A stretch of 64,000 bases of DNA from Candidatus Latescibacterota bacterium (GCA_965242865.1 CBDETK010000013.1:3136001-3200000), one strand, 5' to 3'; shown: positions 12,122 to 49,364, counted from the stretch's first letter. The notes: generated from the letters alone by a model not told the origin. Program-made: numbers and translations.

Positions 12122-13177
12122 ATGTCCATCATCCCCACGCGCCCTTTGCGCACCGGCGTCGAGCTAAGCACCCTCGGCTTTGGCGGCGCGCCTTTGGGCG
12201 AGCTTTTCGATCCGGTCAGCGAAACCCAAGCTCAAGCCACCCTGCAAGCGGCTTGGGACGCCGGCATCCGCTACTACGACACCGCCCCGTTTTACGGCTA
12301 TGGCAAAAGCGAGCACCGCCTCGGCCACTTTCTCCGCCAGCAAGAGCGCGGCGACTTTGTGCTCTCGACCAAGGTCGGCCGGGTGCTCACCGCCACCCGC
12401 GACCTCAATGCTTTTGAGCAAGGCTTCTGGCTCGGCGGCCTGCCCTTTGACTTCCGCTTCGACTACGGGTACGACGGCATCATGCGCTCGTGGGAAGACA
12501 GCTTGCAGCGGCTGAGCCTCAGCTCCATTGACCTGCTGTTGATCCACGACCTCGACAGCTTCTTCCACGACAGCGAGCAACGCTTCTCCGCCCATCTCAA
12601 CCGCCTGATCACCAGCGGCTGGCGCGCCCTCGACGAGCTGCGCTCCCAAGGGCTGATCAAGGCCGTCGGCGCCGGGATCAACCGCATGGGGGCCATGCCG
12701 CGCCTGCTCGACGGGGTGGATCTGGACTTCTGCATCGTCGCCATGCCCTACACGCTCTTGGACCAAGCCTCCCTCGACGAGGAATTTCCGCTCTGCGCGG
12801 AGCGCGACGTGCGCATCGTCATCGGCGCGGTGTTCGCTTCCGGCATCCTCGCCTCCGGCCCGGTCGAGGGCGCTCGCTACGCGTACGACACGGCCTCGCC
12901 GGCAATCCTCGCAAAGACTCGCCGCATCCAAGCCGTCTGCGAGCGGCACGACGTGCCCTTGCCGGCCGCGGCCATGCAGTTCCCGCTCGGGCACCCCCTC
13001 GTCTCGGCCATCATCCCCGGCGCGCTCGTCCCAGCGCACATCGAGACCAACGCCGAGTGGTTTAAGCACCCCATACCCACCGATCTGTGGGCCGAGCTAA
13101 AGGCCGAAGGATTGGTGCGGGCAGACGCTCCGACGCCGTGCGGGAATGAGAATGACGAGGTTAAAAATGGCCCCTGA
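12122..13177 (+). CDS. Aldo/keto reductase (D-threo-aldose dehydrogenase-like)
   Basis: LGFGGAPLG, GIRYYDTAPFYGYGKSE, LSTKVGR, IDLLLIHD. Confidence 0.85.
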   Translation: MSIIPTRPLRTGVELSTLGFGGAPLGELFDPVSETQAQATLQAAWDAGIRYYDTAPFYGYGKSEHRLGHFLRQQERGDFVLSTKVGRVLTATRDLNAFEQGFWLGGLPFDFRFDYGYDGIMRSWEDSLQRLSLSSIDLLLIHDLDSFFHDSEQRFSAHLNRLITSGWRALDELRSQGLIKAVGAGINRMGAMPRLLDGVDLDFCIVAMPYTLLDQASLDEEFPLCAERDVRIVIGAVFASGILASGPVEGARYAYDTASPAILAKTRRIQAVCERHDVPLPAAAMQFPLGHPLVSAIIPGALVPAHIETNAEWFKHPIPTDLWAELKAEGLVRADAPTPCGNENDEVKNGP

Positions 13178-16100
13178 GCCTCCCAAAAAGAAGGTGTTTG
13201 ATCACATCCTCGGCGAACACTACACGGTCTTTGACGGGCTGGGCGGGATGCACGTGGAAGACATCTACCAAGACCGCAACGGTCTGCTCTGGATCGCCAC
13301 GGCCGACGGCGGCGTGAGTCGGTTCGACGGAGCGAACTTCGACACCTTTGGCCTGTCGAACGGGATGCCCCATCTCACGGTAATGACGATTGCCGAGGAC
13401 CAAGACGGGCGTCTGCTCTTCGGCACGCTGGGCGGCGGGCTGGCCATCTATGACGGGCAGGAGCTTCAGGTGCATACCACCGAGCACGGGCTGCCGTCCA
13501 ACGAGATTTTGAGCCTGCAACCCCAAGCCGATGGCTCGCTGCGGATGCTGACCGGCGCCGGGCTAGCCCAGTTCGCCGAGGGTAAGTGCGTGGAGCACAT
13601 GCCGGAAGTTGCGGGTCGGCCGCTCGGAGCGGTGTACGACATGGCGACCGACGCGGCCGGCACGACGTGGTTGGCGACGCGGGAGCGAGGGGTTATCAGC
13701 CTAGAGGGCCGCTCCCTGAGCGGAGACATGGGAAACAACTCGATTCAGTGGCCTTGGAAATTTGCCCAAGGCCCCTCCGGCCCGCTTTGGATCGCCTTTC
13801 ACCACACCGGCCCCGAACCCCTCGTAGGCCGCTACGATCCAAGCAGCCAACAACTCGAACTCATCGAGGTAGAAGACCACGCCGAGGGGGCCGAGGCCGT
13901 CCAGCACGGCACGCGGCACGTGCGCGTCGATGATAGAGGCTTGCTGTGGATGACCCGCCGGGGCGTCCTAGTGTACGACGGACAGGCTTGGCATCCCTTC
14001 TCCACCCAGTCGTCGGATAGCCACTTTTCGGATACGCGGCTGACGTACGAGGACCGCGAGGGGAACATCTGGTTGGGGCTGTGGGGCGGCGGGCTGGTTT
14101 TTTGCGATCCGCTCAGCGTCCAGCTATACACCCAAGCCGATGGCCTGCCCGACAGCGAGGTCCAGTGTCTGGGCGAAGATCGCGAAGGTCGGCTGTGGGT
14201 CGGTACGATGGGCGGCCTAGCCTGCCGCCAAGGCGACCGGATTCGCCCCGTAGGGCCAGAGCGGACGGTCTCAGCGCTGGTGGTAGATCGACAGGGGCAG
14301 GTCTGGAGCGGCGGGTCCGAAGGACAGGTCCTCAAGGCGACGGGCGGAGACGCCGAGGCGATTGAGGTGGCCGCGACGGTCCACACTGGAGAAGTCACCG
14401 GGCTGTGGGAAGACCGAGCAGGCCGCCTAAACGTCTGCACCGCCGAGGGGCGATTGGGGCGGATTGAACGAGATCGCTTTACGGCACTGGCACTAAAGGA
14501 GCAGTTTCCCCGCGATTGCACCGTCGCGCTGCAGGATGGAGCAGGCACCCTCTGGCTCGGCCTCAGCCGGAAAAAGGCCGCTATATGCTATTGCGAGGAC
14601 GGCCGTTTCCACACGCCTGCTGCGGCCGGCGTGGAAGACATCGCGGATGTGCGTGCTTTGTGCGAGTACCAAGGCGCACTCTGGATCGGGACGGAGAACC
14701 AGGGCCTGTTCGCCTTAGACTACGCTTCCGGGGCGATCCGCCGGTTTACGGTGGATCAGGGGGTGCTGTCCGTCAATGGGATCTCGGCTCTGATGAACGA
14801 TCCCCAAGGCAGCTTGTGGATTGGGACCAGCGGCGGGGGCGTACTGAGGTACGACGGCCAGAACTTCCATACCATTCGGCTGGGACAGGGCGCGTTGGAA
14901 AACATCGTCGAGGCCGTTGTGCGCGATAGCCGGGGCCGGCTGTGGTTTGGGACGCGCGCGGGTCTCATTGCGTATCGGCCCGGGGAGACGCGGCCGCGCA
15001 TCCTGCTGCGCCAAGTCGTGGCCGGGCAGACTTGGGACAAACCGCAAGCCGTGTCCTGCCCAGACAGCACGCCCGAGATTCAGTTTCACTTCCAAGGCAT
15101 CAGTTTCAGGAGCGGGGCCGGCCAGATGCGCTACAGCCACCGGCTCGTCGGCCACGGCCCGGCCGAAGAGTGGAGCGCCTTCTCGCCCGCCAACGAGGCG
15201 ACGTACCAAAACGTGCCGGCCGGCCAGTTCCACTTTGAGGTGCGGACCATGGATCGGGATGGCTTGGTGTCGGACATCGCCCGCCTAACGGTGCAAGTGG
15301 TCCCCACCCAATCTCGGCACCTAGAGCAAATGCTGCGGGCCGCACATCAGGGGTTTATCAGCCAAAGTCCGGCCATCGCCGAGCTTCTCGGTAAGCTCGA
15401 CTTAATAGCCGAGACGAATATGGCGGTGCTGGTGTTGGGCGAGACCGGGGTCGGCAAGGGGGTGTTGGCGCGGTTTATCCACCACCTTAGTCCGCGCCGA
15501 GCGAAGCCCTTTATATATGTCAACTGCGGGAACCTGCCCGCCGGGCTGGTAGAAAGCGAACTGTTCGGCCACGAGAAGGGGGCCTTTACCAGCGCCCATG
15601 CCCAAAGAATCGGCTACTTTGAACGAGCGAATGGCGGAACCTTGTTCCTCGACGAAGTGGGCGATTTACGCTTCGAGTCCCAACGGGTCTTGCTCCACAT
15701 CTTGGAGGAGAAACACCTGACGCGCGTCGGCGGCGGGAAGGAGATCCCGGTCGATGTGCGGATCGTTGCTGCGACCAACAGGGACCTAAAAGAGGACATT
15801 CGGGCGGGAACGTTCCGGGGGGATCTGCTCCATCGGCTGAACGAATTCTCAGCCGAACTGCCGCCCCTGCGGGAGCGTCGGGAGGATATCTCGCTCTTGG
15901 CGGTGCATTTTGCGAAAGAGTGGGCCCAAGAGGAAAGGCGGTCGGTGCCGCCTCTAAGCGACGAAGTGCTCGCGCACTTGGAGGGATATCCTTGGCCGGG
16001 GAACGTGCGTGAATTGGAGCATGTGATCAAGCAGGTGATGGTACTGAGCCGTGGGGATGTCATTCAGGTGGAGGATCTGCCGCAGCCAGCGGCCCTCTCT

Positions 16101-16358
16101 GTTGAACAAGGGGCTAACGAGGAGGCTAAAAAGGAGGCTAACGAGGAGGCTAACGAGGAGGCTAAAAAGTGGCAAACTTTCGACGCGGATGCGAGAGATG
16201 AAGCTGAAAAGCAGCGAATTTTGGCGGCTCTCCAAACCACGAACTGGCGGGTTGATGGACCGCGGGGGGCGGCTCGGTTATTGAACATGAGCGCGGAGAA
16301 GCTGCGCTACCGCATGCGCAAGCACGGATTGAAACGACCCAAGAAGTCGTCGAAGTAA
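13167..16358 (+). CDS. Sigma54-dependent enhancer-binding protein with N-terminal Reg_prop beta-propellers and Y_Y_Y domain
   Basis: Repeated D..G.LW.GT..GG blades, Y_Y_Y (YSHRLVG..W...TYQNVPAGQFHFEVR), Walker A GETGVGK, ESELFGHEKGAFTSA, Walker B FLDEV, WPGNVRELE and a C-terminal Fis HTH. GAGGT precedes ATG 13167. Confidence 0.9.
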   Translation: MAPEPPKKKVFDHILGEHYTVFDGLGGMHVEDIYQDRNGLLWIATADGGVSRFDGANFDTFGLSNGMPHLTVMTIAEDQDGRLLFGTLGGGLAIYDGQELQVHTTEHGLPSNEILSLQPQADGSLRMLTGAGLAQFAEGKCVEHMPEVAGRPLGAVYDMATDAAGTTWLATRERGVISLEGRSLSGDMGNNSIQWPWKFAQGPSGPLWIAFHHTGPEPLVGRYDPSSQQLELIEVEDHAEGAEAVQHGTRHVRVDDRGLLWMTRRGVLVYDGQAWHPFSTQSSDSHFSDTRLTYEDREGNIWLGLWGGGLVFCDPLSVQLYTQADGLPDSEVQCLGEDREGRLWVGTMGGLACRQGDRIRPVGPERTVSALVVDRQGQVWSGGSEGQVLKATGGDAEAIEVAATVHTGEVTGLWEDRAGRLNVCTAEGRLGRIERDRFTALALKEQFPRDCTVALQDGAGTLWLGLSRKKAAICYCEDGRFHTPAAAGVEDIADVRALCEYQGALWIGTENQGLFALDYASGAIRRFTVDQGVLSVNGISALMNDPQGSLWIGTSGGGVLRYDGQNFHTIRLGQGALENIVEAVVRDSRGRLWFGTRAGLIAYRPGETRPRILLRQVVAGQTWDKPQAVSCPDSTPEIQFHFQGISFRSGAGQMRYSHRLVGHGPAEEWSAFSPANEATYQNVPAGQFHFEVRTMDRDGLVSDIARLTVQVVPTQSRHLEQMLRAAHQGFISQSPAIAELLGKLDLIAETNMAVLVLGETGVGKGVLARFIHHLSPRRAKPFIYVNCGNLPAGLVESELFGHEKGAFTSAHAQRIGYFERANGGTLFLDEVGDLRFESQRVLLHILEEKHLTRVGGGKEIPVDVRIVAATNRDLKEDIRAGTFRGDLLHRLNEFSAELPPLRERREDISLLAVHFAKEWAQEERRSVPPLSDEVLAHLEGYPWPGNVRELEHVIKQVMVLSRGDVIQVEDLPQPAALSVEQGANEEAKKEANEEANEEAKKWQTFDADARDEAEKQRILAALQTTNWRVDGPRGAARLLNMSAEKLRYRMRKHGLKRPKKSSK
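16111..16169 (+). repeat. In-frame 12-nt tandem repeats in the EBP linker (ANEE/AKKE)
   Basis: ggctaacgagga and ggctaaaaagga units giving GANEEAKKEANEEANEEAKK. Confidence 0.7.
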
Positions 16359-16364
16359 GAGCCC

Positions 16365-16441
16365 GTGCGAAACTGTAAAAAGTCGTGCAAAAGCTGTGCA
16401 AAAGCCGTGCAATTCAAACGACTTTTGCACAGCTTTTGCAC
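16365..16441. promoter_or_regulatory. Putative enhancer (UAS), copy 1: phased GTGCAAAAGNN repeats in direct and inverted orientation
   Basis: 23-bp inverted repeat 16385-16407 / 16419-16441 with one mismatch, about 135 nt upstream of the -24 element. Repeated at 36167 and 49150. Confidence 0.7.
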
Positions 16442-16506
16442 AGAAAATCGCCGATCAACATGGCGGCGACGCCTCATGCCGGCCTCGTAGAAAATTATTT
16501 TTAGCT

Positions 16507-16557
16507 ATCCAATCCCTTGTTTTTCAATCCTTTAGGTAATCCTAAAGGATTTTTTTG
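16507..16557 (+). promoter_or_regulatory. AT-rich tract with IHF-like CAANNNNTTR sites and an 11-bp hairpin followed by a T-run
   Basis: CAAtcccTTG (16510), CAAtcctTTA (16525), aatcctttagg-taat-cctaaaggatt; lies between the UAS and the promoter. Confidence 0.5.
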
Positions 16558-16574
16558 TGCCGGACCGGCCTCGT

Positions 16575-16590
16575 TGGCACGAAACTTGCG
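16575..16590 (+). promoter_or_regulatory. Sigma54 -24/-12 promoter, copy 1
   Basis: TGGCACgaaacTTGCg with canonical GG-N10-GC spacing, directly downstream of an EBP gene. Confidence 0.85.
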
Positions 16591-16635
16591 ATAGTCTTTG
16601 CAAGCGAAGCTCATCTACTCTGAGGCGAAACGGAT

Positions 16636-17775
16636 ATGGAAGCCCTGCTCAACGATTTTGGCCGCGTATTTTTGCTGGAGCTGATTATGGCCTGCGCCAT
16701 TACCATCTGCGGTTGCTATACAACCTATACCGATATTCACTTCCGCCACATTCCCCATTGGGCTAGTTGGGGGCTGCTGGCCGTAGGTTTAATCAGCCAA
16801 GGTCTATTTTGGATGTGGGGTGTGGTCGAACTGGACCAAGCAGGCATCGTCTTGGTGGTCGGTTTTGCCGTTGGTTACATACTCTATATCTATGGATTTT
16901 GGGCACCCGGCGACGCCAAATTGTTTTGGGCTTTTGTCTTGGTGCTGCCGCCGACGTTCTTCCCTTCCACTTCCCTCGCCTCCTTTAACGCGCCGATTTG
17001 GGCACTCCTGCTCAACGCCTTAGTGCTCACCTGTTTTGTCTTGCTGGTGCTGTGGGCGGTTTTGCGCCGAGGTCGGTCCGCAGAAGTCGAGGGGGATTGG
17101 GACGCATCGCAATGGCTGTATCTAGGCTTGGAGTTGGCCGGCCTAATAGGGATCGTGCTGGGTTTTGGCACCTTTCTGCTGGCCGAGACCATGACCTTCG
17201 TAGAGGTCGTGATCGCCATCTTGGTACTCTATCTGCTCGTTGATCACTTCGTCCCCCAGAGGTTCCGGCTGACCTTGGCCCTGCCCGGTCTTATCCTCGG
17301 CGGCTACACGGCCCTAGAATCCGGCGAATGGCTGATCTACCTAGTGTTGTGGGGCCTCTCTTGGGGGGTGTTCTCCCTCTATAAAATCATCCGGCGCCTA
17401 GTCCCTCGGTACTTCGTACAGGCGATGCCTATTCAGGCGTTGCGCGCTGGCATGGTGCCGCAGGTGGCGATCTACGCGGTGGGCGGAGCGGCGGAATACC
17501 GGTGTGGCGCAGAGGTTGGGCAAGGGCAAGACATGCTGTGTTATCCCGGCCGGCCGTTGACCAAGGGGCAGGTGCGGACACTGCACAAAAAATCGGCGGG
17601 CGGTGCTTTCGCGTCGTTTGGCCATGAGTTGGCCGTGGAACTGGCCGTCCCTTTCGCGCCGATAATCGCCGGCGCTGGGGTGCTGACCATCGTCTTGGGC
17701 GGCAGTCTGATCAGACCTCTGATCCAGTTGTTCTCTCCGTGGCTGCCGTCGCTTCAGCAGTTGTTGGCGGGGTAA
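16636..17775 (+). CDS. A24 family prepilin/preflagellin-like aspartic peptidase (long FlaK/PibD/EppA-like form)
   Basis: YTDIHFRHIP (first Asp), GFWAPGDAKLF (GD), multiple TM helices, LRAGMVP insert and C-terminal VPFAP. Confidence 0.8.
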   Translation: MEALLNDFGRVFLLELIMACAITICGCYTTYTDIHFRHIPHWASWGLLAVGLISQGLFWMWGVVELDQAGIVLVVGFAVGYILYIYGFWAPGDAKLFWAFVLVLPPTFFPSTSLASFNAPIWALLLNALVLTCFVLLVLWAVLRRGRSAEVEGDWDASQWLYLGLELAGLIGIVLGFGTFLLAETMTFVEVVIAILVLYLLVDHFVPQRFRLTLALPGLILGGYTALESGEWLIYLVLWGLSWGVFSLYKIIRRLVPRYFVQAMPIQALRAGMVPQVAIYAVGGAAEYRCGAEVGQGQDMLCYPGRPLTKGQVRTLHKKSAGGAFASFGHELAVELAVPFAPIIAGAGVLTIVLGGSLIRPLIQLFSPWLPSLQQLLAG

Positions 17776-17777
17776 TC

Positions 17778-18404
17778 ATGAATCGGGATAGAAAAGACCC
17801 TGTAACAATCGCCTTTGGCGTCCTGTTCGTCGCGTTGCTGCCAACCTTTTTCCTGTTGGTGAGCCACTACCCGTCGATAGACGAGCGCGTGCGACAGTTG
17901 CAGCAGTTGCAGCCCAAGCCCTTGGTGCCTGCGCCTTCACTGGAGGACCTGTTGGCACGAGTCAGCCAAGCCGTATCCGACAGTACGCTCCAACTCCAAC
18001 AGGTATGGGCGGCCGAGCCGGAACCGACTTCTGGCCTAGTGGCCGCCTACGCGGTCGTGCGCGGCGGTCCAGCCGTCTATCGGCTGGTGGTGTTGCGCCA
18101 CGACATCGCCTGTAGCGTCTGCCGAGACGTGTTGGCCGCGGCTCTGTACGACAGCGACGCACTGGTGCAGATCTTCCTGCTCGACGATTGGGAGGTGCGC
18201 GGCGAGCGGGTTGATACCGCGCGGTTTTTGCGCCAATTCGCCGGCCGGCCGCTGGCGACCGAACTGGTTCTTGAGGCCAATGTCGATGGGATCAGCGGGG
18301 CCACGTTTTCAACCGGGGGCCTCGTCGAACAGCTCAACACGGCGGCGGCGTGGGTGCGGACGCATCCACTGACGCCGCTGGCAAGCGAGGGAGAAAACCT
18401 GTGA
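17778..18404 (+). CDS. Membrane-anchored FMN-binding domain protein with CxxC
   Basis: N-terminal TM helix, IACSVC, and VDGISGATFS flavinylation-type motif. Confidence 0.7.
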   Translation: MNRDRKDPVTIAFGVLFVALLPTFFLLVSHYPSIDERVRQLQQLQPKPLVPAPSLEDLLARVSQAVSDSTLQLQQVWAAEPEPTSGLVAAYAVVRGGPAVYRLVVLRHDIACSVCRDVLAAALYDSDALVQIFLLDDWEVRGERVDTARFLRQFAGRPLATELVLEANVDGISGATFSTGGLVEQLNTAAAWVRTHPLTPLASEGENL

Positions 18405-18940
18405 ACCCTCTCAGACCTAATCGCTGGGCTACGACCTTGATCGGGGCTACGGGCCTTCTGTTGGGAGCCTGTGTATTCTTGGCGGCCAAGATCGTCAATC
18501 CCCCGCCCATTGATCCGCTCGATGTGGCGTTTTGGGATTTGCTGGGTACACAAGCGGCTGTCTTGGAATTAGAGGGCCTGACGGGCGCGGACGAGGTTTC
18601 CAACGCACAGTTTGCCGGCGAGCCTTACCTGCTCATTTTCGCCGACCCGACTTGCAGTGCCTGCGAGGCCATTTACCCCCACTTGCTGCGCGCCTCGCAG
18701 GTGCAGGGCGTGAATGTCCTGTTCATTGCCTCGGGCGACCGGCAGGCGATGCAAGACAAAGTGGAGGAACACAGTTTTGCGTTCCCGGTGGCCTTTGATT
18801 CCCTGTTGACGGCTAACAAGCCCTTTGAGGTGGGTGCTCTTCCCGCCTCCATACTGGTCGATGCCGAAGGCAACATTGCCAAAGCCGCTACCGGCGATCA
18901 GGGTGCTGTCGCCGTAATACGCTTGGCTGGAAGTTCCTGA
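18401..18940 (+). CDS. TlpA/MauD-like thiol-disulfide oxidoreductase (redoxin)
   Basis: N-terminal TM, LLIFADPTCSAC, FPVAFD, ALPASILVDAEG. GTG start overlaps the previous stop. Confidence 0.8.
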   Translation: MNPLRPNRWATTLIGATGLLLGACVFLAAKIVNPPPIDPLDVAFWDLLGTQAAVLELEGLTGADEVSNAQFAGEPYLLIFADPTCSACEAIYPHLLRASQVQGVNVLFIASGDRQAMQDKVEEHSFAFPVAFDSLLTANKPFEVGALPASILVDAEGNIAKAATGDQGAVAVIRLAGSS

Positions 18941-18955
18941 AAGGATGGATGCGCC

Positions 18956-19672
18956 ATGTACGTTGTAACTCTCTTGCGTCGTCCGGTGGTGTGGACGGTG
19001 GTAGCCAGCGCCGCGGTCGTGGTCTTTTTGGCCTTGCGTCCCTCTTCGTCGGCCCTCTCGCCGGTGGTGTGGACCGAGCCGCCGGCCAACCCGCTGGCCG
19101 AGGTGCTGCGACCGGGGGATACCGCGCCGGACTTTGCTCTGCCGGCGGTACAGGGCGGCACGGTCGCCTTGAGCGCGTTACGGGGCAAGCCCGCTCTGCT
19201 GGCCTTTGTTACGGCGGAATGTCCGTATTGTCAGAAGCTATACCAGAAACTCGAAGCCTTTGAACTGAATGCGGACCAATACCTCGTATTCATCTGCCCA
19301 AGCGAGGAGGGTGCTCGGAAAATCAGCGCGACCTATTCCTTTACGTATCCGGTGTTGATCGACTCGGCTGGGGCGATTTCACAAGCGTACAAAACCCCTG
19401 GGGTGCCTGCGGTGTATCAGATAGACCCCGAGGGGAAGGTTGTGGATTTGGCGGTGGGGTGGCCATCGGCTTGGACGTTTGTCCGGGGTTTTGGCCGCCC
19501 CCAGCCGAGCGAAAGCTCTGGAGGTCATTTGCTCAATGACTCAGTCACCATTCTGGCTCAGAAAGGAGGTGCATTCCGTGCTCGTAGGTATGATGTTCGT
19601 CAGCAACCGCACTGGTTTGCTGATCCTTTTTCCTATTCTTTTTTCTATCACTCAAGGAGAATTGAGTTATGA
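18956..19672 (+). CDS. TlpA/AhpC-TSA family redoxin
   Basis: GDTAPDFAL, LRGKPALLAF..ECPYC, YPVLID, GVPAVYQIDPEGKV. The C-terminal tail is probably low-information. Confidence 0.85.
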   Translation: MYVVTLLRRPVVWTVVASAAVVVFLALRPSSSALSPVVWTEPPANPLAEVLRPGDTAPDFALPAVQGGTVALSALRGKPALLAFVTAECPYCQKLYQKLEAFELNADQYLVFICPSEEGARKISATYSFTYPVLIDSAGAISQAYKTPGVPAVYQIDPEGKVVDLAVGWPSAWTFVRGFGRPQPSESSGGHLLNDSVTILAQKGGAFRARRYDVRQQPHWFADPFSYSFFYHSRRIEL

Positions 19673-20016
19673 ACTTTTTGACTTTGGTCTTGCAGTCGGC
19701 GCTGGTGCTGCCGCTGGTGGCTCCGCTGGTGGAGTTCGCCACGTCGACGAGCGGCCACGTTGAGCCGCGCGAGGGCTTGGCACTGGGCTGGCTGGGCAGC
19801 GTGGTGGCGGGGCTGGCGGTGGTGTTCGGCACGGCCGAACGGACCCAGGCCGATTCCTGCTACGGAATCTCCGAAGGCTCATCCGGAACGGTCTGCCGAA
19901 CGGACCAACCGTGCATTTATGATCACAATGGAAAGCCCAGAGGGTGGTATCAGGTCACATACTACCACAACTCTGCTACAGGCTGTGAATGGCGATCGGG
20001 GTCCTGCCAGTGCTGA
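19669..20016 (+). CDS. Cys-rich precursor peptide 1 (constant leader, 54-aa core with 6 Cys)
   Basis: AAGGAG SD. Leader nearly identical to 36511 and 49496. Core DSCYG...SCQC follows TQA. Confidence 0.8.
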   Translation: MNFLTLVLQSALVLPLVAPLVEFATSTSGHVEPREGLALGWLGSVVAGLAVVFGTAERTQADSCYGISEGSSGTVCRTDQPCIYDHNGKPRGWYQVTYYHNSATGCEWRSGSCQC

Positions 20017-20022
20017 GCCGTA

Positions 20023-20063
20023 CTGCCGCTGTGGCACTATCGGGCCGGGTGCCACAGCGGCAG
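20023..20063 (+). terminator. 15-bp stem-loop after precursor 1
   Basis: ctgccgctgtggcac / gtgccacagcggcag; homologous hairpins at 36852 and 49934. Confidence 0.65.
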
Positions 20064-20150
20064 GTCGTGTTTTGGCTATCATGTCGGTCACTCGAACAAT
20101 GGTAGGTCGTTAGACCGGCTACTACATCCACTTACTGCCTCTGGAGGTGC

Positions 20151-22259
20151 ATGATGCGCGGCTTGCTTTTTGCGATTGGTTTGTTGATGGCTCCGGTTGG
20201 AGCCTTGGCTTTAACGTGGGATTTCGACGAGGGCACTACGTGGGGCTGGACCGCCCAAGAGGCGGGTTTCTACAGCACTGGGGGAACGGCTGATGCCACC
20301 ACGGTACACAGCGAAGTCGAAGACGGCGTTTGGCGTCTTGCGCCCGTGCCGGGGGCTCGAAAACCCACCCTTCAGTTGCGCTCGCCGCCGATCGAGGAAG
20401 ACTCGGCCCTATTCGACTGGGTCACTCTCCGGCTGCGCATCATCCACCATACCCCGACCGCGGGAACTCTCCTGATGCGATGGTTCAATTCCGAGTACAG
20501 AAGACTCCTCGGTCTGAACCGAATCGACTCCGCCTTTGTTCATTTTGAGACGAGCCGTTTTCAACTCTATCCCACTCAATGGGAAGACATCACCATAGAT
20601 ATACGCGCCTTAGAAGCGAACCCAGAAGTCGCGATCGTCTGGCAGGACACCCTTTTTGAATTCCATTTTGACTTGGACCTACACACCGCCGCACAGGGAC
20701 CGGCCGATCATCCGTCCTTTGTCGAAGTAGATTGGATTCAACTGACCGGGGTGGAAGAGTTATTGCTGGGGGAATTGTCGCCCCGGGCCATCGTCGTGGA
20801 GGCGGGCGTACCCGGCATGTTGTTCGACGAACCGGCCTTTTTTCCCCTCGTTGAGGGCATCAGCAGAATAACGAACATTAGACAATCGGCGGGTACTTTG
20901 GGGGATGTGGATGGCGATGGCGATGTGGATCTAGTGGCGGTTTGGGAACGCCGCACCGTCCCTAGAAGCGACTACGGCTGGATAATAGCCTCCAACGATG
21001 GCTTCGGCGGCTTTGCTCCCACCCAAGACGCGGCCACAAGTACATACCATCTCCAAGGGAGCGACTTCGACGGGGATGGGCTGTTAGACTTGGTCTTTAG
21101 TGGAAACCAGATCGTTGAACTGTGGCATAACGAGGGCGAGGGTGGGTTTGAGAGTATGCTACGGCTGTCCGGCGTCGAGTTCTCTGGCCTCGCTGATGGC
21201 GATGGCGATGGCGATGTGGACCTGTTGGTTTATCAGCTTGGCGACTTATCGCCTCATGTAGTGTTGTGGATCAACGATGGCACCGACGGGTTTGTCCGCA
21301 GCGATCGGTTCGATCTCGACAGCGAAGAAGAGCTCTACGCCTACTGGCCCTCCGGCCAACCGTTGGGTGAGGCCGTGCCCCTATTGTGGAACCGACCCTG
21401 CCACCTGCCCGTGGGGCCTTGGCAACTGACTCGGCCGTGGGCGGCCAGCGAGGAGCCGCCGCTGCTTTTCGAGACCGGAGTCAACCCCTGTGCGCTGCAC
21501 CTGCTCGCCGATGTGGATGGCGACGGGAATGTGGATTTACTCGGCTCCTCTGAGAGTAGAGAGTTCTACTTCGTCTCCAGAACCTACTACGGTTTGGACG
21601 TGTGGCGGTTGGACGCCCTGGGCGGGGTGTCCCGCCACTCCCTGCTCAGCCCGCAGGTACATGTGTCGCCTGGGGTCACTGCCAGCGACCTCAACGGCGA
21701 TGGCCTGCTGGACTTGGCCTTGGTCGATGGCAACTTAGCCACCGGACCGGCGCTGGTGGTGCTGGTCGGCCAGCGCGATGGGCTGCCCGTCGTCGAAGGC
21801 CGCTATCGGCTGCCGGGCACGGGCGGCCAAGTGCTCCCCGGCGACGTAAACGGCGATGGGGCTGTCGATCTGGTGGTGCTGGGGCGGAATATGGAAGGCG
21901 GTCCGGGCGGAGCCTTCGTCTTTCTCAACCAGAGTGCGCCAGCCACCGCCATCGCCGCTGAGACCACATCCACCCCCTCAGCCTTTGCCCTCGGTGCCAA
22001 CTACCCCAACCCATTCAATCCGGCCACGACCATCCCCCTTACCCTGCCCGCCAGTGCCGAGGCGGTGGACGTAACCATCTACAACGTCTTGGGGCAGCCG
22101 GTGCGCCGCGTATGGAACGGTTCGTTGGCGGCGGGCGCACACCGGCTGGCTTGGGATGGTCGGGACGCACAGGGACAGCCCGTCGCCGCAGGGGTCTATT
22201 GGTATCGGTTGCAGGTGGGCGATCAGACGCACACCCGCAAGATGATCAAAATCGAATAG
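20151..22259 (+). CDS. Secreted CBM-like + FG-GAP/VCBS propeller + FlgD-Ig/T9SS-like CTD protein, paralog 1
   Basis: Signal peptide ending ALA|LTWDF, repeated GDVDGDGDVD/DFDGDGLLD motifs, LGANYPNPFNPATTI...WDGRD..G.PVAAGVY tail. Confidence 0.8.
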   Translation: MMRGLLFAIGLLMAPVGALALTWDFDEGTTWGWTAQEAGFYSTGGTADATTVHSEVEDGVWRLAPVPGARKPTLQLRSPPIEEDSALFDWVTLRLRIIHHTPTAGTLLMRWFNSEYRRLLGLNRIDSAFVHFETSRFQLYPTQWEDITIDIRALEANPEVAIVWQDTLFEFHFDLDLHTAAQGPADHPSFVEVDWIQLTGVEELLLGELSPRAIVVEAGVPGMLFDEPAFFPLVEGISRITNIRQSAGTLGDVDGDGDVDLVAVWERRTVPRSDYGWIIASNDGFGGFAPTQDAATSTYHLQGSDFDGDGLLDLVFSGNQIVELWHNEGEGGFESMLRLSGVEFSGLADGDGDGDVDLLVYQLGDLSPHVVLWINDGTDGFVRSDRFDLDSEEELYAYWPSGQPLGEAVPLLWNRPCHLPVGPWQLTRPWAASEEPPLLFETGVNPCALHLLADVDGDGNVDLLGSSESREFYFVSRTYYGLDVWRLDALGGVSRHSLLSPQVHVSPGVTASDLNGDGLLDLALVDGNLATGPALVVLVGQRDGLPVVEGRYRLPGTGGQVLPGDVNGDGAVDLVVLGRNMEGGPGGAFVFLNQSAPATAIAAETTSTPSAFALGANYPNPFNPATTIPLTLPASAEAVDVTIYNVLGQPVRRVWNGSLAAGAHRLAWDGRDAQGQPVAAGVYWYRLQVGDQTHTRKMIKIE

Positions 22260-22288
22260 ACGACCTAAGTTATCACTGGAGGCAAACT

Positions 22289-24403
22289 ATGCGCGGCTTG
22301 CTTTTTGCGATTGGTTTGTTGATGGCTCCGGTTGGAGCCTTGGCCCTAACGTGGGATTTCGACGAGGGCACCACGTGGGGCTGGACCGCCCAAGAATCGG
22401 GTTGGTACAGTACTAGGGGAACATTTGATGCCACCCTAGTGTACAGCGAAGTCGAAGACGGCGTCTGGCGCCTAGTGCCCGTGCCGGGGGCGCGAAAACC
22501 CACCCTTCAGTTGCGTTCACCACCGATTGGCGAAGACTCCGCCCTGTTCGACTATGTCACCCTCCGGCTCCGCATCATCCACCATACCCCGACGGAGGGA
22601 ACTCTCCAGATGCGATGGTTCAATTCCGAGTACACAAGACTCCTCGGTCTGAACCAACACGAGGGCGAGAATCAGTTTTATCGGGGCCGTTTGCAACTTT
22701 ACCCCACTCAATGGGAAGCCATCACCATAGATATACGCGCCTTAGAAGCCGCAGCCGTAGCCGACCCAGAAGTCGAACTCACCTGGCAGGACACCCTTTT
22801 TGAATTTCGTTTTGACTTGGACTTAAACACTACCGCGCAAGGGCCGGCCGATCATCCGTCCTTTGTCGAAGTAGATTGGATTCAACTGACCGGGGTGGAA
22901 GAGTTGCTGCTGGGGGAATTGCCGCCCCAGGAAATCGTCGTGGAGGCGGGCTTGCCCGGCGCGTTGTTCGACGAACCGGCCTTTTTTTCCCTCGTCGAGG
23001 GCATCAAAGGCAAAATGGGCATTGGACAATCGATGGGTACTTTGGGTGATGTGGATGGCGATGGCGATGTGGACCTCGTGGCGGTTTGGGATCGCTTCAC
23101 CGCTACCGGAAGCGACCACGGTTGGCTCATAGCCTCCAACGATGGTTTCGGCGGCTTTGTCCTCACCCAAGAGGAGGCCGCAAGCACCTACCTCAGTCTC
23201 CAAGGGAGCGACTTCGACGGAGATGGGCTGTTCGACTTGGTCTTTAGTGGAAACCAGATCGTTGAACTGTGGCATAACGAGGGCGAGGATGGGTTTGAGA
23301 GTACGCTGCGGCTGTCCGGCGTCGGGTTTGTTGGCCTCGCCGATGGCGATGGCGATGGCGATGTGGACCTGTTGGTTCATGAGCTTGACGACGAATCGCC
23401 CCACGTGGTGTTGTGGCTCAACGATGGCGACGCCGGATTCGTCCGCCGTGAGCGGTTCGATATCGATAGCGAAGAGGAACTCTATGCTTACCCGTCCTCC
23501 GGGGAACCGCCGGGCGAGGCCGTGCGCCTGTTGTGGACCCAACCCTGCTACCTACCCCAAGGGCCGTGGCAACTGACCCGGCCGTGGGCGGCCAGCGAGG
23601 AGCCATCGCTGTTTTTCGAGACCGGGGTCAACCCCTGTACGCTGCACTGGGTCGTTGATTTGGGTGGCGATGGAGCGGTGGAGTTCGTCGGTTCCCTTGA
23701 ACTGAGACGGTTCTCCTCCGACTACACCAACCACGGCTTGGTCGTGTGGCGTCTAGACGCTTCGGGCGGGATGTCTCGCCATCCCCTGCTCGGCTCGCAG
23801 GTACACGTGTCGCGTGGGGCCACGGCCAGCGACTTCAACGGCGATGGCCTGCTGGACTTGGCTGTGGTCGATGGCAACTTGGCGACTGGACCGGCGTTAG
23901 TGGTGCTGACCGGCCAGCGCGATGGGCTGCCCGTCGTCGAAGGCCGCTACCGGCTGCCGGGCACGGGCGGCCAAGTGCTCCCCGGCGACGTAAACGGCGA
24001 TGGGGCTGTCGATCTGGTGGTGCTGGGGCGGAATATGGAAGGCGGTCCGGGCGGAGCCTTCGTCTTTCTCAACCAGCATACGCCAGCCACCGCCATCGCC
24101 GCTGAGACGCCGACTACGCCCACGGCCTTTGTCCTCGGGGCCAACTATCCCAACCCGTTCAATCCAGCCACGACCATCCCCTTGGCACTGCCTGCCCAAG
24201 CCAGCGAGGTGGCCTTAACCATCTACAACGTCTTGGGGCAGCCCGTGCGCCGCGTGTGGGCGGGTTCGTTGGCCGCCGGCGAACACCGACTGGCTTGGGA
24301 TGGTCGGGACGCACAGGGACAGCCGGTCGCCGCGGGGGTCTATTGGTATCGGTTGCAGGTGGGCGATCAGACGCGCACCCGCAAGATGATCAAAATCGAA
24401 TAG
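22289..24403 (+). CDS. CBM-like/FG-GAP/CTD protein, paralog 2
   Basis: Same architecture; start reset to MRGLL after GGAGG. Confidence 0.8.
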   Translation: MRGLLFAIGLLMAPVGALALTWDFDEGTTWGWTAQESGWYSTRGTFDATLVYSEVEDGVWRLVPVPGARKPTLQLRSPPIGEDSALFDYVTLRLRIIHHTPTEGTLQMRWFNSEYTRLLGLNQHEGENQFYRGRLQLYPTQWEAITIDIRALEAAAVADPEVELTWQDTLFEFRFDLDLNTTAQGPADHPSFVEVDWIQLTGVEELLLGELPPQEIVVEAGLPGALFDEPAFFSLVEGIKGKMGIGQSMGTLGDVDGDGDVDLVAVWDRFTATGSDHGWLIASNDGFGGFVLTQEEAASTYLSLQGSDFDGDGLFDLVFSGNQIVELWHNEGEDGFESTLRLSGVGFVGLADGDGDGDVDLLVHELDDESPHVVLWLNDGDAGFVRRERFDIDSEEELYAYPSSGEPPGEAVRLLWTQPCYLPQGPWQLTRPWAASEEPSLFFETGVNPCTLHWVVDLGGDGAVEFVGSLELRRFSSDYTNHGLVVWRLDASGGMSRHPLLGSQVHVSRGATASDFNGDGLLDLAVVDGNLATGPALVVLTGQRDGLPVVEGRYRLPGTGGQVLPGDVNGDGAVDLVVLGRNMEGGPGGAFVFLNQHTPATAIAAETPTTPTAFVLGANYPNPFNPATTIPLALPAQASEVALTIYNVLGQPVRRVWAGSLAAGEHRLAWDGRDAQGQPVAAGVYWYRLQVGDQTRTRKMIKIE

Positions 24404-24432
24404 ACGACCTAAGTTATCACTGGAGGCAAACT

Positions 24433-26544
24433 ATGCGCGGCTTGCTTTTTGCGATTGGATTGTTGACCGCTCCGGTTGGAGCCTTGGCCTTAACGTGGGA
24501 TTTCGACGAGGACACCACGTGGGGCTGGACCGCCCAAGAGGCGGGTTCCTACAGCACTAGGGGAACGGATGATGTCACCACGGTGTATAGCGAAGTCAAA
24601 GACGGCATTTGGCGTATTGCGCCCGTGCCGGGGGCTCGAAAACCCACCCTTCAGTTGCGCTCGCCGCCGATCGAGGAAGACTCGGCCCTGTTCGACTATG
24701 TCACTCTCCGGCTCCGCATCACCCACCGTATCCCGACGGAGGGAACGCTCGTGATGCGATGGTTCAATGCTGAGTACACGAGACGCCTCGGGCTGAACCG
24801 ATACGAAGGAGAAGGGAAGTTTTTGACGAGCCGTTTTCAACTCTATCCCACTCAATGGGAAGACATCACCATAGATATACGCGCCTTAGAAGCCGCGACG
24901 GAAGCCGACCCGGAAGTCGAGATCGTCTGGCAGGACACCCTTTTTACGTTTCTCTTTGACTTGGACCTACACACCACCGCACAGGGGCCGGCCGATCATC
25001 CGGCCTTTGTCGAAGTAGATTGGATTCAACTGACCGGGGTGGAAGAGTTACTGCTGGGGGAGTTGCCGCCTCGGGCCATCGTCGTAGAGGCGGGCTTGCC
25101 CGGCACGTTGTTCGGCGAACCGGCCTTTTTTCCTCTCGTCGAGGGCATCAAAGGCAAAGTGGCCATTGGACAATCGGCAGGTACTTTGGGGGATGTGGAT
25201 GGCGATGGCGATGGGGATCTAGTGGCGGTTTGGAATCGCCTCACTGCCACCGGAAGCGACCATGGTTGGCTCATAGCCTCCAACGATGGCTTGGGCGGCT
25301 TTGCTCCCACCCAAGAGGAGGCCGCAAGTGCCTACCTCAGTCTCCAAGGAAGCGACTTCGACGGAGATGGACTTCTCGATCTGGTCCTTGGTGAAGGCCG
25401 GACCCTTGAACTGTGGCACAACCGGGGCGAGGATGGGTTTGAGAGTACGCTGCGGCTGTCCGGCGTCGGGTTCGTTGGCCTCGCCGATGGCGAGGGCGAT
25501 GGCGATGTGGACCTGTTGGTTCATGAGCTTGACGACGAATCGTCCCACGTGATTTTGTGGATCAACGATGGCGACGCCGGATTCGTCCGCCGTGAGCGGT
25601 TCGATCTCGACCGCAAAGAAGCACTCAAGCCGTACCCGCCCTCCAAGCAACCGCCGGGCGAGGCTGTGCGCCTGTTGTGGAACCGCCCCTGCGACCTGCC
25701 CGTGGGGCCTTTGCTCCTGACCCGACCGTGGGCGGCCAGCGAGGAGCCGCCGCTGTTTTTCGAGACCGGAGTCAACCCCTGTACGCTGCACTGGATCGTT
25801 GATTTGGATGGCGATGGGGTGATGGAATTAGTCGGTTCCCTTGAGGAGAGATGGTTCTTCGGCTACACCTACCACGGCTTGGCCGTGTGGCGGTTGGACG
25901 CTTCGGGCGGGGTATCCCGCCATCTCCTGCTCGGTCCGCAGGCACACATGGCGCATGAGGCCGTTGCCCACGACCTCAACGGCGATGGCCTGCTGGACTT
26001 GGCTGTGGTCGATGGCAACTTGGCGACTGGACCGGCGTTAGTGGTGCTGACCGGCCAGCGCGATGGCCTGCCCGTCGTCGAAGGCCGCTACCGGCTGCCG
26101 GGCACGGGCGGCCAAGTGCTCCCCGGCGACGTAAACGGCGATGGGGCTGTCGATCTGGTGGTGCTGGGGCGGAATATGGAAGGCGGTCCGGGCGGAGCCT
26201 TCGTCTTCCTCAACCAGCGTACGTCGGCCACCACGGTCACTACTGAGACCGCGACTGTCCCCTCAGCCTTTGTCCTCGGGGCCAACTATCCCAACCCGTT
26301 CAATCCAGCCACGACCATCCCCTTGGCACTGCCTGCCCAAGCCAGCGAGGTGGCCTTAACCATCTACAACGTCTTGGGGCAGCCCGTGCGCCACGTGTGG
26401 GCAGGTTCGTTGGCGGCGGGCGCACACCGGCTGGCTTGGGATGGCCGGGACGCGCAGGGGCGGCCCGTCGCTGCGGGCGTCTATTGGTATCGGTTGCAGG
26501 TGGACGATCAGACGCACACCCGCAAGATGATCAAAATCGAATAG
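24433..26544 (+). CDS. CBM-like/FG-GAP/CTD protein, paralog 3
   Basis: Same architecture; start reset to MRGLL. Confidence 0.8.
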   Translation: MRGLLFAIGLLTAPVGALALTWDFDEDTTWGWTAQEAGSYSTRGTDDVTTVYSEVKDGIWRIAPVPGARKPTLQLRSPPIEEDSALFDYVTLRLRITHRIPTEGTLVMRWFNAEYTRRLGLNRYEGEGKFLTSRFQLYPTQWEDITIDIRALEAATEADPEVEIVWQDTLFTFLFDLDLHTTAQGPADHPAFVEVDWIQLTGVEELLLGELPPRAIVVEAGLPGTLFGEPAFFPLVEGIKGKVAIGQSAGTLGDVDGDGDGDLVAVWNRLTATGSDHGWLIASNDGLGGFAPTQEEAASAYLSLQGSDFDGDGLLDLVLGEGRTLELWHNRGEDGFESTLRLSGVGFVGLADGEGDGDVDLLVHELDDESSHVILWINDGDAGFVRRERFDLDRKEALKPYPPSKQPPGEAVRLLWNRPCDLPVGPLLLTRPWAASEEPPLFFETGVNPCTLHWIVDLDGDGVMELVGSLEERWFFGYTYHGLAVWRLDASGGVSRHLLLGPQAHMAHEAVAHDLNGDGLLDLAVVDGNLATGPALVVLTGQRDGLPVVEGRYRLPGTGGQVLPGDVNGDGAVDLVVLGRNMEGGPGGAFVFLNQRTSATTVTTETATVPSAFVLGANYPNPFNPATTIPLALPAQASEVALTIYNVLGQPVRHVWAGSLAAGAHRLAWDGRDAQGRPVAAGVYWYRLQVDDQTHTRKMIKIE

Positions 26545-26573
26545 ACGACCGCAGTTATCACTGGAGGAGACCT

Positions 26574-28718: not shown

Positions 28719-28788
28719 GGTGAAAGTACCACAGGAGCAGGCGACCAGAACATCCTAAAACAAATCTATCACGCTCTGGAGGTGCATT

Positions 28789-31024: not shown

Positions 31025-32356
31025 ATGAGACGACCGTGGAAAGCACCGCTCCGCAAAAACAGAACCCTGCAAAGCTGCTTGGCGGTGTCGCTGGCCTTGC
31101 ATCTGCTGGTGATCTTCGGCATCACGCACCGCGAACAGGTTGCTCAGTTTCCTGTCCTACAGCCGATCATGGTGGAGTTTATCAAACGCCCGCCGCCGCA
31201 GCGCACCCTTACCCGCCGCCAACGGCCCCGCCAACGGCCCTTAGTGCGCCGCCCCGCCCTGCAAGCCGCCCCGGTCGTTGCGGTGCGCCCGGCTCCCACG
31301 GCGACACGGCCCCTGCCGATGTTCAAGCCATCGGCACTTAGGCTGCCGATGGCAGCATTGCCCGATCGACTGGTGCTACCCGTGCCGGACTTCCCCGCTC
31401 GGCACATTGGTCCGCAAATGCAGGCTGGGGCATTGGAAGGAACGCGACAGGGGACCGACGAGATTGACTTGGCCTTAGAACTGATGGATGTGCAGGCCAT
31501 GGACACCGGCCAGCACCGGGCGATGGTGGTCGTCGATCCAAAAGACCGGCGTCAACTCAAGGGATTCCTCTATATGTCCAATGTATATAGCTCCTCCATT
31601 GAACGGGCTGAGCGAGAAACATCACGCCGACTTTTGCAGACGCGCCAAATGGTGGAAAACCGGATGCTGCAAGGGTTGGCCGACAAAATGGTCGCCAGTA
31701 CGCAGGTTCACGCCGAAGTGCTCGACGCGGTGGCACTAGACGACCCCCAGCTATTGCAGGTGCCCTTCGTCCTCCTGACGGCGAGCGATCATTTCGAGTT
31801 TACCGAGGCGGAGACAGCCAATCTCGGAGCGTACTTGACTTCGGGCGGCTTTCTCTTTGCGGAGATTGTGCGCGAATTGGGGTACCACTACAGCGACGAC
31901 GAATTGGACATTCCCGCGGTGCGATCCCTCATTCGCGCCAGCTTGCAGGCGGCGGGTTATCAAGAGTGGAAGGACTGGCAATTTAGACGCCTAGAGCTAA
32001 CCCATCCGATCTATCATTGCTTCTACGATGTGGAGAGTCTCCCCCGCGGGATGCGCGATATGCACTATGCAAACTATGCAACAGGAGCGGGAATGAGAAC
32101 GCCGCCAACTCCGGACTATTTGGAGGGCATTGTCGTCGGGGATCAGTTGGTGGGCGTGTATTCGATGCGTGGCTACGCCGATTTCTGGGCGGGAATCGCC
32201 GAGCAGGAAAAGGAAGTATTTGCTACGCTCAGTAATATTAGTCCGTTTCTGGCCAGTGCCGAGGAGCCGATGGTGTATAACTTGGGCGTCAATTTCTTGG
32301 TGTATGCGCTGACACGCGAGGGGTCACTGACCCAACAATTAGTCGTTGCGGACTGA
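31025..32356 (+). CDS. DUF4159 domain protein with TonB-like N-terminal anchor, copy 1
   Basis: TM with SLALH, Pro/Arg-rich linker, then ANLGAYLTSGGFLF, HPIYHCFYD, LEGI, LGVNFLVYALT. Confidence 0.7.
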   Translation: MRRPWKAPLRKNRTLQSCLAVSLALHLLVIFGITHREQVAQFPVLQPIMVEFIKRPPPQRTLTRRQRPRQRPLVRRPALQAAPVVAVRPAPTATRPLPMFKPSALRLPMAALPDRLVLPVPDFPARHIGPQMQAGALEGTRQGTDEIDLALELMDVQAMDTGQHRAMVVVDPKDRRQLKGFLYMSNVYSSSIERAERETSRRLLQTRQMVENRMLQGLADKMVASTQVHAEVLDAVALDDPQLLQVPFVLLTASDHFEFTEAETANLGAYLTSGGFLFAEIVRELGYHYSDDELDIPAVRSLIRASLQAAGYQEWKDWQFRRLELTHPIYHCFYDVESLPRGMRDMHYANYATGAGMRTPPTPDYLEGIVVGDQLVGVYSMRGYADFWAGIAEQEKEVFATLSNISPFLASAEEPMVYNLGVNFLVYALTREGSLTQQLVVAD

Positions 32357-35065: not shown

Positions 35066-35066
35066 G

Positions 35067-36365: not shown

Positions 36366-36381
36366 TGGCACGAAACTTGCA
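36366..36381 (+). promoter_or_regulatory. Sigma54 -24/-12 promoter, copy 2
   Basis: TGGCACgaaacTTGCA. Confidence 0.85.
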
Positions 36382-36510
36382 ATAGTCATTACAAGACAAG
36401 TGAAGCTCATCTACCAGAAAGGAGGTGCATCCCGTGCTCGTAGGTTTTGCTCGTCAGCAACCGCACTGGTTTGCTGATCCTTTTTCCTATCACTCAAGGA
36501 GAATTGAGTT

Positions 36511-39086: not shown

Positions 39087-39116
39087 ACGACCCGAAGCTA
39101 TCACTGGAGGTGACCT

Positions 39117-41267: not shown

Positions 41268-41293
41268 ACGACCGCAGTTATCACTGGAGGTGC

Positions 41294-43420: not shown

Positions 43421-43439
43421 ACGACCGATTTGGAGGTGC

Positions 43440-49348: not shown

Positions 49349-49364
49349 TGGCACGAAACTTGCA
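49349..49364 (+). promoter_or_regulatory. Sigma54 -24/-12 promoter, copy 3
   Basis: TGGCACgaaacTTGCA. Confidence 0.85.

Follow-up and report, generated by a model that had tools for sequence, protein, structure and literature searches.

An A24 aspartyl protease gene linked to the leaders of small exported peptides in Latescibacterota: a probable leader peptidase outside type IV filament systems

What does a prepilin-type peptidase do at the head of an operon that has no pilus genes around it? The presence of an A24 peptidase is taken to mark a type IV filament system, and the question is raised by a 64,000-nucleotide stretch of the genome of a Candidatus Latescibacterota bacterium (GCA_965242865.1, CBDETK010000013.1:3136001-3200000; hereafter the window, with positions counted from its first letter). 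At positions 16636 to 20016, an A24-family gene opens a tightly packed operon and is followed by an FMN_bind-like gene, two thioredoxin-like genes and the gene for a small precursor, p1, whose ATG (19669) overlaps the stop codon of the thioredoxin gene before it. We propose, with a probability of roughly 60%, that the enzyme is a dedicated leader-processing protease of a family of exported small peptides, acting outside any type IV filament system. Judged from the sequences, the genetic tie between this protease and a hybrid leader on small exported peptides is both real and unusual.

A divergent A24 enzyme and the leader that accompanies it

The peptidase gene (16636-17775; all genes named here lie on the plus strand) encodes a 379-residue protein with the features of a GxGD aspartyl intramembrane protease of the EppA/FlaK type. 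The match to Pfam Peptidase_A24 (PF01478) covers residues 21 to 121 and scores 27.1 bits against a cut-off of 26.5, a small margin; in a six-frame search of the 6.0-Mb genome the same gene scores 30.7 bits and is the sole A24 match. The NCBIfam scan named no family for the protein and gave no match to EppA. Despite the marginal Pfam score the assignment is firm, because the aspartate pair is conserved, the fold model is good and its structural match is FlaK. In 18 of 18 relatives, and again in 27 of 27 sequences of a second alignment, the catalytic residues D33 (within YTD) and D93 (within APGDAKL) do not vary, and each is at least 90% conserved across 107 sequences. An AlphaFold model from the single sequence reached a pLDDT of 47.6; the final AlphaFold2 model, which used the 107 sequences, has a pLDDT of 92.2 and a pTM of 0.87 and comprises about 10 helices and a beta-rich soluble domain (residues ~260 to 338). 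In the structural search the top match, and the only one at Z ≥ 8, was FlaK (3s0x_B; Z 10.4, rmsd 3.6, 170 residues aligned, chain length 186), with the runner-up at Z 7.5. Foldseek with the model against the PDB returned nothing at E ≤ 0.001, and the sequence profile matched no PDB chain at E ≤ 1.

The methyltransferase and Zn-binding N-terminal region of the bifunctional PilD/GspO enzymes (A24A) is absent, the Pfam match beginning at residue 21 with no further domain. On sequence grounds the window protein is best described as a peptidase-only, archaeal-type A24 enzyme, real but divergent and active-looking. The helix pattern of the model and the positive-inside rule are read as placing both aspartates and the beta-rich domain on the cytoplasmic side, as in FlaK, so that the enzyme would have access to a substrate's membrane span from the cytoplasmic end only. 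The family is large: 1537 cluster representatives match at E ≤ 0.001, of which 507 do so at E ≤ 1e-10, and most are full-length proteins of 350 to 390 residues. An earlier reading of the window, made from the sequence alone, had placed an A24-type protease first in the operon, and it was right in coordinates, content and family: the open reading frame (ORF) runs from 16636 to 17775 behind a sigma-54 promoter, its profile score exceeds the cut-off, both aspartates are invariant and the predicted fold is FlaK-like.

The same sequence-only reading had described five precursor genes with EPR(E/Q)G-L(A/V)L, a hydrophobic stretch and T(Q/P)A-D, without the Glu at +5 of type IV prepilins, and had suggested a search for further class III-type substrates. 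A six-frame motif scan recovered exactly these five precursors in the window. Precursor p1 (19669-20016, 115 residues) has a 36-residue N-region ending in EPREG, then the hydrophobic stretch, TQA-D and a core of ~55 residues with six cysteines. Precursors p2 (36511-36846, 111 residues, six cysteines in the core) and p3 (49496-49825, 109 residues, four cysteines in the core) each have a sigma-54 promoter of their own. The longer p4 (53627-54325, 232 residues) and p5 (58041-58913, 290 residues) have shortened leaders, a Cys-bearing core in p4 and two core repeats with eight cysteines in p5, and both end in a type IX C-terminal domain (TIGR04183, 35.8 and 39.7 bits, cut-off 23). The leader motif reads EPREGLAL in three precursors and EPRQGLVL and EPRQGLAL in one each, followed by WLGSVVAGLA(V/M)VF, and the leader ends in TQA-D in three and TPA-D in two. 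Measured against type IV prepilins and their short basic leaders, Gly at -1 and Arg at -3 are present, the leader has 24 to 36 residues, and +5 is Trp (Arg in p4) instead of Glu. An AGGAG-type ribosome-binding site stands ahead of every precursor ATG (in p4 it reads GTGAG), which indicates that the long N-terminal extension is translated.

Genome-wide, a leader profile finds 13 precursors: the five of the window, seven on contig C13 at 371-411 kb and one at 2.27 Mb. The leader model used below to compare loci across phyla is specific in this genome, with 13 of 85,423 ORFs at E < 0.01 and the next best at E 0.72. The sequence-only reading had not included the eight precursors outside the window, nor four canonical pseudopilins on a separate contig that are discussed below. 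All eight carry a second (clade-2) leader, M-x-x-L-R-E-F-F-x-S-S-S-G-L-A/V-P-A-R-Q-G-L-A-L-G-W. Paralogues share far more of their leader than of their core (identity 0.90 against 0.37 over 28 pairs in one clade, 0.71 against 0.50 over 10 pairs in the other), the pattern of conserved leader and variable core seen in ribosomal peptide families, and the number of cysteines is even in 13 of 13 cores. The common architecture is an N-region F-x3-[E/S]-x-G-x3-4-[R/K]-x-[G/A], a span starting L-x-L-G-W and an AxA-type site; about 20 to 36 conserved residues precede the candidate cut, and the AxA-type site after the hydrophobic stretch is kept in every group, across phyla. Against Pfam, up to E 10, the precursors gave nothing relevant and matched neither N_methyl nor Flp_Fap.

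Among 25 genomes of the genus, 15 have both peptidase and leader, 2 the leader only, none the peptidase only and 8 neither; in a sample of 151 genomes of the phylum, the corresponding counts are 18, 4, 5 and 124. Gene position is a stronger signal than these counts. A leader-bearing ORF lies 200 to 350 bp from the peptidase gene in at least eight genomes from three families, and synteny of the FMN-like, A24 and thioredoxin genes with precursors persists as peptidase identity falls from 82% to 27%. Relatives of the peptidase also occur in species genomes of Poribacteria, Chloroflexota/Anaerolineales, Desulfobacteraceae, Omnitrophica and DPANN archaea. When loci found with a 27-row peptidase alignment were inspected with flanks of up to 8 kb on each side, a small ORF with the same leader core was present in 43 of 79, and 16 loci outside Latescibacterota matched the leader model though none had supplied seed sequences. 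The cargo behind the leader differs between groups: Poribacteria have Cys-rich, multi-copy peptides, and in Chloroflexota, Desulfobacteraceae and archaea the tails are His-rich or His-x-Ser-like. Beside the distant peptidase members, phmmer did not find the thioredoxin and FMN-like genes of Latescibacterota. Maturation neighbours therefore differ from locus to locus while peptidase and leader are shared, and this is our main argument that the enzyme reads the leader. One Chloroflexota relative gives a weak full-length match to EppA (26 bits).

At the far end of this distribution, a locus in a Desulfobacteraceae metagenome-assembled genome (L114:3260-7478) has a peptidase relative heading an operon with HxsD-like genes, HxsB (444.8 bits) and an HxsA3-like precursor. 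That precursor scores 39 bits on the NCBIfam model for HxsA3 (NF038309), below the cut-off of 65, and distant leader relatives as a group score 14 to 39 bits; the window and clade-2 precursors have no HxsA3 match at E ≤ 1. The arrangement suggests that some His-x-Ser systems use an A24-like peptidase.

Proposed cleavage of the leader and competing explanations

We infer that the enzyme cuts these leaders, as well as where it does so, which of the two cuts comes first and what the thioredoxins do. Inserted through Sec, the precursor would keep its N-terminus on the cytoplasmic side. The A24 enzyme would cut at the cytoplasmic edge of the span, at RxG-L or after an upstream glycine, and signal peptidase I would cut the AxA site on the periplasmic side, releasing a core of 47 to 59 residues with an even number of cysteines. 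The two membrane-anchored thioredoxin-fold proteins, possibly together with the FMN_bind-like protein, would fold the core oxidatively, a role for private thioredoxins that suits the even cysteine count of the cores. Forms with a C-terminal sorting domain would leave through the type IX secretion system; p4 and p5 carry such a domain over the cut-off, and the genome encodes the machinery (PorU 624 bits, SprA 482 bits). One sigma-54 activator would turn on both the peptidase operon and the free-standing precursor genes.

Two positions could serve for the A24 cut. In an alignment of 80 unique leader cores (54 from Latescibacterota, 26 from other groups), the -1 position of RxG-L (site B) is Gly or Ala in 51 of the 54 Latescibacterota cores; elsewhere it is Ala in 18 of 26 and Ile or Leu in 8 of 26. 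A glycine seven residues upstream, in F-x3-[E/S]-x-G (site A), is found in 49 of 54 Latescibacterota cores and 26 of 26 others, the exceptions being Glu in two cores (the SVSEH-type leader, as in p4 and p5) and a gap in three. A24 enzymes cut at the edge of a hydrophobic stretch, which is where site B lies, and site B resembles the archaeal basic-small-hydrophobic pattern. The spacing of site A resembles the Flp leader motif F-x-x-D/E-E-x-G, which precedes the cut in those proteins. From these patterns, a cut at site B can be put forward tentatively, at somewhat less than even odds, and a cut after the site A glycine is doubtful; another site, or no A24 cut, takes the rest of the probability. 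Prediction of a complex between peptidase and leader gave a score of 0.04 against a mark of 0.32, which counts neither for nor against binding.

The family to which the enzyme belongs makes a connection with filaments the first alternative to consider. The earlier description of a peptidase without pilus genes is correct for the window, which has no match to T2SSE (PF00437) or T2SSF (PF00482) and so lacks the ATPase and platform protein that, with a peptidase, would mark a type IV filament system. In the genome, the T2SSE, T2SSF and N_methyl matches are confined to one 41-kb contig, C1. There, C1:26051-36586 holds a type II secretion-like cluster with GspE, GspF, four N_methyl pseudopilins (G-xTLxE) and a secretin-sized gene. 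With no peptidase beside that cluster and a single A24 gene in the assembly, the window enzyme might be a housekeeping prepilin peptidase that processes the four pseudopilins, its place beside the peptide genes being incidental. This is barely credible, since this genome and just one other make up the 2 of 41 related genomes with N_methyl proteins, and in that other one the contig that encodes them also has a canonical A24 gene (82 bits); moreover, 14 other genomes of the genus carry the divergent peptidase without any N_methyl match, and the peptidase follows the leaders across phyla. The bin has an estimated contamination of 6.8%, and C1 is probably foreign to it or a rare acquisition. The sequence-only reading had itself offered two explanations, mini-pilins and processing in two steps. 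As mini-pilins, the peptides would be cut at RxG-L, retain their hydrophobic stretch and display or polymerize disulfide heads, an idea that draws on their class-III-like layout (basic residue, glycine, hydrophobic stretch) and on an enzyme family used for pilins. It is very unlikely, however, given that an assembly ATPase and a platform protein are missing from the window and from the main chromosome contig, that of the 15 genomes of the genus with the peptidase, 11 gave no T2SSE match over the cut-off (among them 6 of the 7 that are single-contig), and that the precursors match no pilin profile and have an AxA site directly behind the stretch. Type IX cargo crosses the periplasm as a soluble protein, and the type IX tails of p4 and p5 would need such an intermediate. 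Of the two explanations, two-step processing fits the AxA site, the type IX tails and the lack of assembly machinery better, as it does the even cysteine counts and the pairing of conserved leaders with variable cores. As a separate observation, three genomes of another family in the same class encode PilB-like ATPases (336 to 343 bits) but gave matches to neither PF01478 nor N_methyl; a six-frame first look may have missed their peptidase and pilins, or these may have diverged too far.

The remaining alternatives concern what the enzyme does to the leader, or whether it touches it at all. In a variant of leader processing rather than its opposite, signal peptidase I would act first, and the A24 enzyme would then cut the leftover leader of 45 to 60 residues within the membrane, as a presenilin-type signal peptide peptidase (SPP) does, either clearing it or freeing its N-terminal piece as a signal. 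The GxGD chemistry that A24 enzymes share with SPP and presenilin, in line with the FlaK match, speaks for such a role, as do the conserved AxA site, an N-region conserved far beyond the needs of export and the up to 13 to 20 precursor genes per genome, which would load the membrane with long leaders; there is no evident receptor for a freed fragment, and we consider this order of events unlikely, though by no means negligible. Alternatively, the peptidase-like protein may not act on the precursors, instead processing other membrane-anchored operon products (the thioredoxins or the FMN-like protein) or serving as a non-proteolytic scaffold, with the leader removed by signal peptidase I or by the transglutaminase-like protein encoded nearby. 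The N-terminal anchors of the FMN_bind-like and thioredoxin proteins do have basic residues, and the papain-fold domain is conserved in the cluster. Against this stand the catalytic aspartates, invariant in the 18 relatives and near-invariant in the 107, and the loci of Poribacteria, Chloroflexota and the Hxs type, which keep leader ORFs where phmmer found no thioredoxin or FMN-like genes; we judge it improbable.

Several observations nonetheless weigh against a dedicated leader protease. The Pfam score is marginal and NCBIfam provides no name. Neither candidate glycine is universal: p4 and p5 lack the one at site A, and Ile or Leu replaces it at site B in the eight cores from outside Latescibacterota noted above. 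R-G-L or RxG-L where a hydrophobic stretch begins is not rare, as the ordinary signal peptides of FG-GAP proteins nearby illustrate (MMRGLLFAIGLL), and the weight therefore rests on conservation and on co-occurrence with the peptidase, not on the motif alone. Five genomes of the phylum sample have the peptidase and no leader match. Conversely, two single-contig genomes keep leader-bearing genes without a peptidase; their leaders are degenerate, with a deletion that removes G-L-x-L-G-W and one gene cut to 42 residues. Related genomes are not independent, so the co-occurrence counts are descriptive and overstate the support, and the leader model was partly built from loci that it then scored. 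Finally, signal peptidase I alone could handle a leader with an AxA site, and the transglutaminase-like (papain-fold) domain could be a protease.

Shared promoters and gene neighborhood

Gene regulation would couple the peptidase to its putative substrates. The gene at 13146-16358, directly upstream of the operon, codes for an enhancer-binding protein of the sigma-54 class whose N-terminal part is a Reg_prop/Y_Y_Y propeller sensor; its Pfam matches are Sigma54_activat (208 bits), Reg_prop (121 bits) and HTH_8. Homologues of this activator adjoin the peptidase module in related loci, and it is likely the regulator of the system. A sigma-54 promoter (-24/-12), TGGCACGAAACTTGC, lies on the plus strand at 16575-16589. 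The window has just two further perfect matches to the pattern, upstream of p2 (36366-36380) and of p3 (49349-49363), and the three promoter-upstream regions align with a mean column identity of 85%. Repeats of TTGCAC-N5-TTTTGC at 16387-16439 (one-mismatch pattern matches at 16387, 16398 and 16425) form a block that is also present upstream of p2 and p3 and is a candidate upstream activator site. A conserved stretch of ~130 nucleotides separates promoter and ATG in p2 (36381-36510) and p3 (49364-49495), is partly present upstream of p1, and could be a regulatory 5' untranslated region. Within the leaders themselves, the codons for G-L-A-L-G-W-L spell TGGCACTGGGCTGGC, one mismatch from the sigma-54 pattern, at 19778-19792, 36608-36622 and 49593-49607; this in-frame resemblance is probably a coincidence.

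Between the peptidase and p1, the operon encodes three membrane-anchored proteins. The gene at 17778-18404, whose ORF is open from a GTG at 17739, encodes a protein with a weak FMN_bind/RnfG-like C-terminus (FMN_bind 17.8 bits, cut-off 22; NCBIfam RnfG 20.9 bits). It is followed by two thioredoxin-fold oxidoreductases with CxxC motifs. The first (18350-18940) is TlpA/ResA/MauD-like with an N-terminal membrane anchor (AhpC-TSA 39.3, Redoxin 32.2, ResA 43.6 and MauD 38.3 bits); the second (18956-19672) scores 66.3 bits on AhpC-TSA and 56.1 on Redoxin. The second is 238 residues long, ~45 more than its relatives (~193 residues), and the extra ~45 codons at its end (19520-19672) can be aligned to the conserved untranslated stretch that precedes p2 and p3. 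From the difference in length and this alignment, the ORF seems to have been extended into a former leader region.

Two accessory genes lie further downstream: a GT1-like glycosyltransferase fused to a transglutaminase-like core (32573-35065; Transglut_core 59.7 bits, EryCIII-like_C 35.2 bits) and a GT2 glycosyltransferase (34719-36131; Glycos_transf_2 87.5 bits). In most Latescibacterota loci with 39 to 82% peptidase identity, both keep their synteny with this module. More than 12 paralogous FG-GAP proteins of ~700 residues with type IX secretion tails interleave with the precursor genes, in the window and in related loci alike. Their first run spans 20151-30924 (FG-GAP_3 69.1 bits, Por_Secre_tail), and others lie at 36957-45560, 50021-52144, 54222-56543 and 58810-64000. 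We considered these proteins as peptidase substrates and dropped them, R-G-L not being kept in the paralogues of the second cluster. A DUF4159 protein with an N-terminal anchor occurs in three near-identical copies (31025-32356, 52245-53567 and 56644-57981), two of them immediately upstream of p4 and p5. The DNA runs that contain at least half of the sampled words from 16500-20100 include three sponge-labelled metagenomes from one study; no RNA run was listed.

The second cluster, at C13:367000-411000, has seven clade-2 precursors interleaved with FG-GAP/type IX paralogues. It also includes a separate sigma-54 activator gene, glycosyltransferase genes, an FMN-like gene and one that is DUF4159-like. 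It has no A24 or thioredoxin genes, though other genomes have them at the equivalent cluster. In this genome, which has only a clade-1 peptidase, all eight clade-2 leaders read RQG-LALGW, like the clade-1 leaders; at loci in genomes that also have a clade-2 peptidase (L035-L043, L047), most short clade-2 leaders read LGLGW or LSLGW. The difference may reflect co-adaptation of substrate and enzyme, or a single event.

Wider meaning and comparison with known systems

The whole A24 subfamily (the 507 cluster representatives at E ≤ 1e-10) appears to travel with small secreted peptides, not with pilins. If this is true, the annotation of such genes would change, a third protease would be added to the processing of bacterial signal peptides, and a large unexplored set of disulfide-rich peptides would gain a handle. 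HxsA3-like proteins with the same leader also suggest a connection to a class of periplasmic anti-phage effectors. A broader reading goes further and takes the leader to be a hybrid export signal, widespread and unrecognized. A GxGD protease independent of filaments would read and cut its cytoplasmic part (F-x3-[E/S]-x-G, then basic-small), and signal peptidase I would cut its periplasmic end. Latescibacterota, Poribacteria, Chloroflexota, Desulfobacteraceae (HxsA3-type) and DPANN archaea would use the pair of leader and A24 protease for small effector peptides of variable sequence. The A24 cut would be a checkpoint controlling when a folded or modified peptide is released, or it would set free the conserved N-terminal fragment as a cytoplasmic signal. 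We regard this broader reading as possible rather than probable. No paper linking a prepilin-type peptidase to the leader peptides of secreted or ribosomal peptides was found in a literature search that had subscription journals outside its coverage.

The closest known enzymes are FlaK, EppA and PibD (MEROPS A24B), which have the GxGD motif, two aspartates at the cytoplasmic face, no methyltransferase and a soluble beta-domain. Their substrates likewise have a basic and a small residue before a hydrophobic stretch. The window enzyme differs in its ~380 residues with extra helices and in having no filament ATPase, platform protein or pilins beside it, and its putative substrates differ in their long N-region (20 to 36 residues) and in the AxA site; as this site follows the hydrophobic stretch, the stretch is probably discarded and not kept. 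TadV and CpaA, which process Flp prepilins, are also small, peptidase-only A24 enzymes. In the window, however, there is neither a G/xxxxEY motif nor any Tad gene, and glycine is followed by a basic segment and a Cys-rich mature part behind AxA; a relationship to Flp has no profile support, with no match to Flp_Fap (PF04964) in the precursors at E ≤ 10 or in any of the 151 phylum genomes.

A precedent for A24 enzymes that cut exported proteins other than pilins is the bindosome of Sulfolobales, whose sugar-binding proteins are processed by PibD. In the available part of a 2026 survey of archaeal type IV filaments, class III signal peptides are reported on many archaeal binding proteins, always with filament machinery (PMC13705601). 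Bindosome proteins keep their hydrophobic N-terminus and have a filament-like assembly, whereas the window system is without such an assembly and a second site follows the stretch. The HXS anti-phage system touches the present family, since distant relatives of the peptidase lie beside HxsA3-like precursors that share the leader core of the window. The available text on that system gives HxsA an ordinary 22-residue signal peptide and mentions no peptidase (PMC13128918). The window precursors differ from its products in having Cys-rich cores in place of His-x-Ser, and the window has no radical SAM gene.

In overall logic, the locus also resembles leader-guided peptide systems with private disulfide enzymes, for which the sun operon of sublancin is an example. 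Both combine a conserved leader with a variable, Cys-rich core, and both clusters include thiol-disulfide oxidoreductases and glycosyltransferases; from the presence of such genes, the cores of the window peptides may be modified as well. Where the sun type of system relies on an ABC transporter with a C39 peptidase domain, the window peptides would instead be exported by a Sec-type signal and trimmed by a membrane aspartyl protease.

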